Source: a virus
Reading direction: 5' to 3' (one strand)
Length of the DNA stretch: 37,454 nucleotides
Virus genome (UHGV): UHGV-2036287
Below are positions 1 through 1,044 of this stretch, piece by piece. Numbering within the stretch: position 1 is the stretch's first letter; every line of letters starts with the position of its first letter. The translations under genes were made by a program, and so were the position numbers. The notes beneath the pieces are model-generated. The model searched no databases, had not been told where the DNA came from, and saw only the letters and a program-made list of their open reading frames with translations.

Positions 1-62
1 ATGACAAAGTCATCGGGCATTATCTGAACATAAAACACTATCAATAAGTTGGAGTCATTACC
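1..62 (+). mobile_element. IS1 terminal fragment (right end with terminal inverted repeat); body of the element lies upstream of the window
   Basis: nt 1-62 (ATGACAAAGTCATCGGGCATTATCTGAACATAAAACACTATCAATAAGTTGGAGTCATTACC) matches the IS1 end sequence as I recall it; all three forward frames are closed within the first 47 nt. Confidence 0.8.
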
Positions 63-885
63 GACCACCAATACCCTGTCGGGAAACGGCAATTTTTATA
101 TGCGTACCGATATGGCTAATCATCAGAGCGATCAGCTCAACGTCACCGGTCAGGCAACAGGTGATTTCAAAATATTTGTGACGGACACCGGTGCCAGCCC
201 GGCAGCAGGAGATAGCCTTACACTGGTAACAACGGGCGGCGGTGATGCTGCATTTACGTTGGGCAATGCCGGAGGCGTTGTTGATATCGGTACGTATGAA
301 TATACCTTGCTGGATAATGGCAACCATAGCTGGAGTCTGGCAGAGAATCGCGCGCAAATTACCCCTTCAACCACTGATGTGCTGAATATGGCGGCCGCAC
401 AACCGCTGGTATTTGATGCAGAACTGGACACCGTGCGTGAGCGTCTTGGTAGCGTAAAAGGCGTTAGTTACGATACGGCGATGTGGAGTTCGGCAATTAA
501 CACCCGCAACAACGTGACCACTGATGCGGGAGCTGGTTTTGAGCAAACATTGACGGGCCTGACGCTCGGTATCGATAGCCGTTTCTCCCGTGAAGAAAGC
601 AGTACAATTCGCGGCTTGATCTTTGGTTACTCTCATTCTGATATTGGTTTTGATCGCGGCGGCAAAGGTAATATCGATAGCTATACCCTGGGGGCTTATG
701 CCGGTTGGGAGCATCAGAACGGTGCCTATGTTGATGGGGTGGTGAAAGTTGACCGTTTTGCCAACACCATCCATGGCAAGATGAGTAATGGGGCAACAGC
801 GTTTGGCGATTACAATAGTAACGGCGCGGGTGCTCATGTTGAGAGCGGGTTCCGTTGGGTTGACGGATTGTGGAGTGTTAGATGA
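63..885 (+). pseudogene. Autotransporter (adhesin-type) gene remnant: passenger C-terminal repeats, autochaperone/linker and only the first part of the beta-barrel; truncated at both ends
   Basis: Translation has Gly/Thr/Asn-rich beta-strand repeats, a linker-like helix (LNMAAAQPLVFDAELDTVRERLG) and about 140 aa of alternating-hydrophobic barrel-like sequence ending at a stop at 885. No N-terminus or signal peptide, and the barrel is about half the expected length. Flanked by IS1 on the left and the prophage end on the right. Confidence 0.6.
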
Positions 886-1044
886 TTAGACTTGAGATAA
901 ATGACAGGGAATAAGTGAGATATTTATGGGAAGAACTGGGTCAAAATGGGAAGAAACCAGGAGGAATATGCAATAACCTTACAGTATGTGAAAATCAGAC
1001 CGGCCCGAACAAAAACAGAACTCGCGCCAGCCTGATTGCAGATA

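Follow-up and report, generated by a model that had tools for sequence, protein, structure and literature searches.

Very probable inactivation of the Escherichia coli autotransporter gene yejO by separate insertions of IS1 and, later, of a BcepMu-type phage

The first 882 nucleotides of UHGV virus genome UHGV-2036287 (37,454 nucleotides, analysed here over its whole length and called the window below) consist of the tail of an IS1 element followed by an internal fragment of yejO, an E. coli gene that sits between narP and tRNA-Pro/yejM and whose product is an AIDA/pertactin-type (type Va) autotransporter. Two independent transposition events have occurred 820 bp apart in this gene, and the yejO fragment in the window is a pseudogene remnant of a gene that is non-functional. 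We are highly confident that yejO was pseudogenised by separate insertions of IS1 and of a BcepMu-type phage, each with its own target duplication, and with IS1 most likely arriving first. The original prediction, made from the letters of the window, had seen one autotransporter gene struck twice, by an IS element and by a transposable phage, and this is indeed what we find, with breakpoints at yejO nt 1386 (IS1) and nt 2205 (phage). It had also called these insertions nested, which they are not: the elements lie side by side, 820 bp apart, and neither is inside the other. The features of the window are collected in Table 1. The left side of IS1 and the right phage junction, both located outside the window, were read from other assemblies of what is apparently the same allele. 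None of the complete RefSeq E. coli genomes holds the whole locus in one finished sequence.

Table 1. Features of the window (positions are those of the window; + and - give the strand)
Feature	Position	Strand	Remarks
IS1 3' terminal 62 bp (IS1A type)	1..62	+	100% match to annotated IS1A copy
IS1 right terminal inverted repeat, 23 bp	40-62	+	ATCAATAAGTTGGAGTCATTACC
End of IS1 transposase (insB') CDS	45-47	+	stop codon TAA
IS1 9-bp target-site duplication, right copy	63..71	+	GACCACCAA; yejO nt 1386-1394
yejO internal fragment	63..882	+	nt 1386-2205 of the 2592-bp gene; ends at codon 735 of 863
Prophage 6-bp target-site duplication, left copy	877..882	+	GTTAGA; yejO nt 2200-2205
Transposable prophage	883..37454	+	36,572 bp in window of about 37,422 bp
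Non-coding prophage left end	883..1044	.	terminal 5'-TG, two putative transposase-binding motifs
Putative transposase-binding motif	896-903		GATAAATG; prophage left end
Putative transposase-binding motif	919-926		GATATTTA; prophage left end
Mor-family transcription activator	1045..1434	-	Pfam Mor E=1e-43; nearest left end; position of BcepMu gene 01
GemA-family protein	1406..1897	-	Pfam GemA E=1e-40; RefSeq uses a later start, 150 aa
Transposition ATPase (AAA_22 / ExeA-like)	4666..5871	-	Pfam AAA_22 E=4e-20; BcepMu gene 08 position
DDE (rve) transposase, 589 aa	5843..7612	-	Pfam rve
CI-type repressor	9141-9572		8.3 kb inside phage
D12-class (Dam-type) adenine methylase	11038-11895	-	accessory region; Pfam
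Left inverted repeat of invertible tail-fibre segment	35971..36196	.	BLAST of window vs L012-L015

The yejO fragment and the IS1 beside it

Comparison of window positions 63-882 with the intact yejO of strain ATCC 8739 gives 819 identical nucleotides out of 820 without any gap, the yejO frame running from position 64. This alignment to an intact autotransporter gene, which the original prediction had proposed as a check, maps both breakpoints on yejO, and leaves the fragment without codons 1-461 and 736-863. In Pfam searches the fragment matches Pertactin (E=9e-40, profile positions 27-120 of 121) and the Autotransporter beta-domain (E=7e-25), the latter over profile positions 1-136 of 255 only; the pertactin domain is mostly present and the beta-barrel domain is represented by about its first 53%, in agreement with the claim that about half of the barrel is missing. 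Intact YejO, a protein of 863 amino acids, shows AIDA repeats, Pertactin at residues 431-555 and the Autotransporter beta-domain at residues 602-841, and by this order of domains (AIDA - Pertactin - Autotransporter) the fragment fits YejO as a type Va (AIDA/pertactin-type) autotransporter. Neither the alignment nor Pfam finds in the window fragment a complete yejO open reading frame with a signal peptide and a full beta-barrel, and the reading frame does not correspond to a complete small protein either.

The open reading frame listed at 49-885 is in fact a composite, made of the yejO fragment, an upstream TTG codon located inside IS1 and a TGA stop codon (883-885) that is nothing else than the first three bases of the prophage. 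Identity with yejO ends after 882 (...GGAGTGTTAGA), and TGATTAGACTTGAG... comes next. The remnant predicted at 63-885 is therefore in frame as claimed but stops at 882, the TGA at 883-885 belonging to the phage; likewise, the barrel is cut by the prophage, at a boundary that lies at exactly 883 rather than near 885. The 820-bp piece between the two elements would be inert, its own promoter, start codon and signal peptide all being absent, and its reading frame is closed by the terminal TGA of the phage.

The statement that the window opens with the last 62 bp of IS1 proved exact: positions 1-62 (ATGACAAAGTCATCGGGCATTATCTGAACATAAAACACTATCAATAAGTTGGAGTCATTACC) match, at 100% identity, the 3' end of the IS1A copy annotated in E. 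coli EC931 (NZ_CP049118.1; L001 6001-6062), whose left inverted repeat GGTGATGCTGCCAACTTACTGAT pairs with positions 40-62 read as reverse complement (GGTAATGACTCCAACTTATTGAT). This copy lies between two GACCACCAA sequences in EC931, with yejO carrying on to its left, and is a simple insertion with the canonical 9-bp duplication. The left GACCACCAA copy falls outside the window, and the 9-bp duplication was read in EC931, a strain without phage at yejO. The predicted absence of an N-terminus is thus correct for the window but need not apply to the genome, if we judge from EC931, where the 5' part of yejO lies beyond the same IS1. We considered, and rejected, a microhomology at the IS1 junction, where BLAST extends the yejO match back to position 55; ungapped comparison reduces this extension to a chance resemblance, which needs a gap, between the tip of IS1 (TCATTACC, window 55-62) and a piece of yejO located just upstream of the insertion point (TCATTACGTT, nt ~1376-1385).

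A second IS1, inverted and flanked by the duplication CTATCCTTG, is present at yejO nt 881-889 in EC931 and in OZ040824.1, a 512-bp middle fragment of yejO separating the two IS1 copies in both (the loci concerned are EC931 L001 4013-5294, OZ040824.1 L020 and contigs L028 and L029, all outside the window). A middle fragment flanked by IS1 and 100% identical to that of EC931 also occurs in two metagenome samples, ERZ920104 and ERZ27262106, each of which holds the right yejO::phage junction as well. From this co-occurrence, which does not place the fragments on one chromosome and for which metagenome samples are the sole source, the phage-bearing lineage probably has the second, inverted IS1 at nt 881-889 too, which would make three insertions and leave the gene in four pieces. 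Finally, a protein in which the intact YejO N-terminus runs into the nt-1394 IS1 is found on 2 contigs, and hints that this IS1 preceded the other insertions; the same N-terminal/IS1 fusion built on the ATCC 8739 allele is absent from the protein collection.

These data bear on the idea that the IS1 copy of the window marks the place where a deletion or inversion promoted by IS1 in its neighbourhood came to an end, with the 5' part of yejO absent or displaced. Such an origin could be suggested by the fact that the window has one side of IS1 only, in the form of 62 bp of an element that is 768 bp long when complete (with insA and insB'), and that the short-read contigs of this allele all break inside IS1. 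We nevertheless regard it as very unlikely, because the identical junction in EC931 belongs to a simple insertion that duplicated 9 bp and beyond which yejO continues, because N-terminal fragments joined to IS1 and middle fragments flanked by IS1 both exist in public data, and because the middle fragment accompanies the phage junction in two samples.

Prophage boundaries and the right junction

The left end of the prophage starts with 5'-TGATTAGAC... at exactly 883, and the phage sequence is non-coding from 886 to 1044. Position 883 is also where the match starts in all of the 30 best-matching genomes, in which the copies occupy differing chromosomal positions; in total, the 11 kb from 883 onward match 643 of 5426 complete E. 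coli genomes, at 711 chromosomal places. Four other copies that we examined lie inside yfaQ (DUF2300), zntB, wcaJ and rlmI, the host gene being split in two each time. All four share the ends 5'-TGATTAGAC...GCGCATCA-3' and are bordered by 6-bp direct duplications of unrelated sequence (GCCACG, ATAACC, CATAGC and GCTTTT), and with yejO the 6-bp duplication is seen in all five insertions. A longer duplication of up to 9 bp, suggested by a coincidental TCA at the yfaQ copy, was discarded, since comparison between copies shows that the phage ends with ...GCGCATCA and that 6 bp are duplicated. The pair of motifs at the left end recurs at the same spacing at the other end of the phage and at both ends of BcepMu, from which we infer that the transposase may bind both of them.

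The window ends inside the prophage, about 850 bp short of its right end, and the right junction had to be read from other assemblies. We predicted it by joining the phage end to yejO from nt 2200, assuming GTTAGA to be a 6-bp duplication, and derived the open reading frame that spans it. The resulting junction protein of 146 amino acids (MPFIAQDRVHLSRGAS|VRPYLAFTGF..., yejO from codon 734) has an exact match on 43 public contigs, and the left-junction open reading frame (100-885) is found on 22; none of the alternative-start versions of the junction frames (TTG 49, ATG 112, GTG 178 and others) is in the protein collection. Eight loci that were fetched (L012-L019) read ...GCGCGGCGCATCA|GTTAGA|CCCTATCTGG..., i.e. 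GCGCATCA|GTTAGA|CCCTATC, and continue with the rest of yejO (nt 2200-2592) and then with yejM, yejL, yejK, rplY and radD, recognised by Pfam content and in normal order. The other prophage end thus has, in public assemblies, the matching yejO fragment, the GTTAGA duplication and the normal neighbours that the original prediction had suggested looking for. The phage insertion in yejO is a simple one with GTTAGA duplicated, since the GTTAGA of window 877-882 is a 6-bp duplication that is present at the right junction too.

Several observations connect the two junctions. The window is collinear with L015 up to L015 position 9198, and the phage ends at L015 10048. Samples ERZ23880423 and ERZ28521501 each hold both junctions. 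The longest contig is 126,894 bp for the left-junction as well as for the right-junction protein, and the left-junction protein is found on four contigs of 50-200 kb; as these contigs stop at IS1 on one side, they must run through the entire prophage on the other. The right flanks of L012-L019 are 99.97-100% identical to EC931, and the upstream context on the narP side is found only in EC931, in OZ040824.1 and on the contigs with the N-terminal fragment.

One might wonder if the juxtaposition of IS1, yejO and phage is simply a short-read mis-join of repeats, given that an IS1 and an inverted repeat of an invertible segment stand at the two ends of the window. This seems hardly credible to us: the junctions at 62/63 and 882/883 are not in repeats, both are reproduced in independent assemblies made from different samples with different assemblers, and the reciprocal right junction exists with the expected duplication.

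The recurrence of the same junction on dozens of contigs from many samples could also be taken as a sign of site-specific integration, yejO carrying an attachment site and the phage an integrase with the corresponding specificity. Yet this recurrence fits one clonal lineage, the junctions being base-identical and the flanks the same, and phage copies that are 99-100% identical sit in yfaQ, zntB, wcaJ and rlmI with unrelated 6-bp duplications. Moreover, the phage encodes an rve DDE transposase and its AAA+ partner, and Pfam and the annotation reveal no tyrosine or serine integrase in it apart from a Gin-type invertase beside the tail-fibre segment. The phage is in yejO in none of the 5426 complete E. 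coli genomes, and the 882/883 yejO::phage junction occurs in none of these RefSeq genomes, the best matches stopping at 882. Site-specific integration is in our opinion highly improbable, and insertion by transposition remains the reading that we retain.

Order of the insertions and known yejO alleles

EC931 and OZ040824.1 both have the identical IS1-yejO junction, with 100% identity over window positions 1-882, and in both of them GTTAGA is present only once, the phage site being unoccupied. Both strains, which carry yejO::IS1 x2, share with the present allele the IS1 junction, the 9-bp duplication and the IS1 orientation, differ from it by the vacant phage site, and look like its pre-phage state. 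We think that the insertion of IS1 before the phage is most likely, because the identical IS1 junction is found in strains whose phage site is unoccupied and because precise loss of a transposable prophage is rare, as for Mu-type phages; this order assumes that the IS1 junction of EC931 is identical by descent.

The reverse order, in which the phage would have inactivated a functional yejO and IS1 would have entered a gene already dead, finds some room in the fact that the window itself gives no order of events. It is quite unlikely, however, in view of the empty sites of EC931 and OZ040824.1 beside their identical IS1 junctions, of the rarity of precise prophage loss just mentioned, and of the left-junction contigs, all of which run into IS1 (a phage-bearing contig without IS1 was not seen among them).

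With IS1 first, the history of the locus would be as follows. IS1 would have transposed into yejO at nt 1386-1394, duplicating 9 bp (GACCACCAA); the BcepMu-type phage would then have lysogenised the cell by an insertion mediated by its DDE transposase at nt 2200-2205, duplicating GTTAGA and cutting the beta-barrel domain roughly in half. Neither event would have been site-specific, and the phage, if IS1 did precede it, would have entered a gene that had already lost its function, without any cost for the host.

A comparable situation exists in E. coli K-12, whose yejO, in the same chromosomal position (narP - yejO - tRNA-Pro - yejM), is likewise inactivated by the insertion of a mobile element. 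The K-12 gene has a single IS5 near its 5' end, whereas here yejO is interrupted by IS1 at nt 1386-1394, by a 37.4-kb prophage at nt 2200-2205 and, probably, by a further IS1 at nt 881-889. The label 'IS5K-containing' is also borne by Shigella sonnei entries that fall in the same protein cluster. Loss of yejO is commonplace, since the gene of K-12 has been disrupted independently by IS5. No paper on the yejO::IS1/phage allele was found in the literature; all of its components are of known kinds, the allele is already in many public assemblies, and we are dealing with the ordinary loss of a dispensable gene to mobile DNA. Its importance lies mainly in annotation and it does not imply new biology. 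The allele, which occurs in several human-gut metagenomes, can also serve as a clean marker of its lineage.

Three insertions within 1.3 kb of one gene, together with the independent IS5 of K-12 in the same gene, may give the impression that this clustering is non-random and that yejO is a preferred landing zone for mobile elements. We consider this very doubtful. In one version of the idea, a resident IS1 or the local structure of the DNA or nucleoid might attract BcepMu-type transposition complexes; in another, transposable prophages might be kept mainly in genes that are already dead, which would serve as 'safe harbours'.

As a separate observation, EC931 and ATCC 8739 disagree at 11 of 464 residues in the passenger (N-terminal) half of YejO (L001 3124-5294 vs L002 2626-4019). 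Identity to ATCC 8739 is 99.95% from yejO nt 2206 into the downstream genes, and the window fragment is identical to that strain at all but one position; divergence would then be confined to the surface-exposed part of the protein, and the differences in the passenger half point to a possible allelic divergence or recombination limited to that part. We had also tried to use the downstream flank for lineage assignment and gave this up because, with 99.95% identity even to ATCC 8739, the flank is too conserved.

A BcepMu-type prophage

The prophage had been described as Mu-like. In the broad sense this is acceptable; Mu proper it is not, having a BcepMu-type transposase, a 6-bp duplication and a terminal Mor gene. 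The transposase is 68.5% identical to that of BcepMu (gp09, over 98% of the length), 69% to that of phiE255, 57% to that of Pseudomonas phage B3, 93.5% to that of Klebsiella phage KP12 and 98% to that of Escherichia phage PhiKM. The tblastn search with this protein gave 69 hit records under Pseudomonas, Burkholderia, Stenotrophomonas, Klebsiella, Ralstonia, two cyanophage and two Escherichia names (of these last two, only PhiKM is listed by name), and neither Mu nor D108 figures among the listed hits (E<=1e-5). Pfam possesses domain families specific to Mu transposases, none of which is detected in this protein, where rve is the only match.

The prophage is BcepMu-like, not Mu, and should be annotated as such. 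With BcepMu (Bcepmuvirus) it shares an rve-type DDE transposase next to an AAA+ transposition protein (annotated as 388 amino acids, with a later start codon), a leftward early operon that finishes with GemA and Mor at the very left end, a repressor read rightward, and the same succession of lysis genes, Mu-like head genes and P2-like tail genes; the gene tables of L003, a copy of the same phage, and of BcepMu correspond gene for gene. The termini of both are 5'-TG...CA-3', and at each end the TGA start is followed by GATAWWT motifs at positions 14-21 and 37-44. Relatives of BcepMu are phiE255, Klebsiella phage KP12 and Escherichia phage PhiKM. The prophage differs from BcepMu by its E. coli host, by a Gin-type invertase and an invertible tail-fibre segment where BcepMu has a right-end acyltransferase, and by other accessory genes, including the Dam-type methylase. 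TG...CA termini and a Tn552-related rve transposase are marks of BcepMu-type elements (PMC2628397). No statement of the length of the BcepMu target duplication was found in the literature.

The likeness to Mu (Muvirus) is of a more general kind: both phages are temperate, integrate by transposition at sites that are essentially random, and thereby disrupt genes of the host. They also have in common Mor, GemA and Gam homologues (RefSeq names a Gam family protein in the present phage), TG...CA ends and an invertible tail-fibre segment of the Gin type. Unlike Mu, it has no MuA-type transposase, it duplicates 6 bp of target where Mu duplicates 5 bp, and its early region is inverted, with Mor in the terminal position whereas Mu has its repressor at the extreme left end.

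Copies of the prophage that are 99-100% identical occur at different loci of other strains. Over the first 11 kb, copies at unrelated loci (L003-L006) are even 100% identical, in strains from human, pig and cattle and from several continents. Such identity between copies at different loci of unrelated strains suggests, as far as sequence comparison can tell, that the prophage has been recently active, and we are apparently dealing with a common, under-annotated and recently mobile BcepMu-type phage of E. coli. In RefSeq, the only name given to its transposase is 'integrase catalytic domain-containing protein'. The base-exact boundaries of the pseudogene and of the prophage (ends, 6-bp duplication and end motifs) should be of help to prophage callers, which often mis-set the boundaries of transposable phages.

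The accessory region between the repressor and the lysis genes covers window 9695-13308. Among its genes the Dam-type methylase is the only one with a match in PADLOC and Pfam; the four other open reading frames (9695-10588, 10524-10985, 12210-12614 and 12814-13308), which have none, could possibly be lysogenic-conversion or exclusion genes.

The Gin-type invertible segment is bordered by inverted repeats of about 227 bp that are about 92% identical, and its part in the window is 35971-37454. The end of the window (37365-37454) falls inside the right inverted repeat (L015 9106-9331), and the Gin-type invertase gene lies with the right end in the last ~850 bp of the prophage, beyond the window. 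With the same yejO insertion, the tail-fibre segment has the orientation of the window in L015 and L013 and the opposite one in L012 and L014; both orientations thus exist within one yejO-insertion lineage, and therefore the invertase has been active there. Since both ends of the window lie in repeats (IS1 on one side and the inverted repeat on the other), the window looks like one whole short-read contig.
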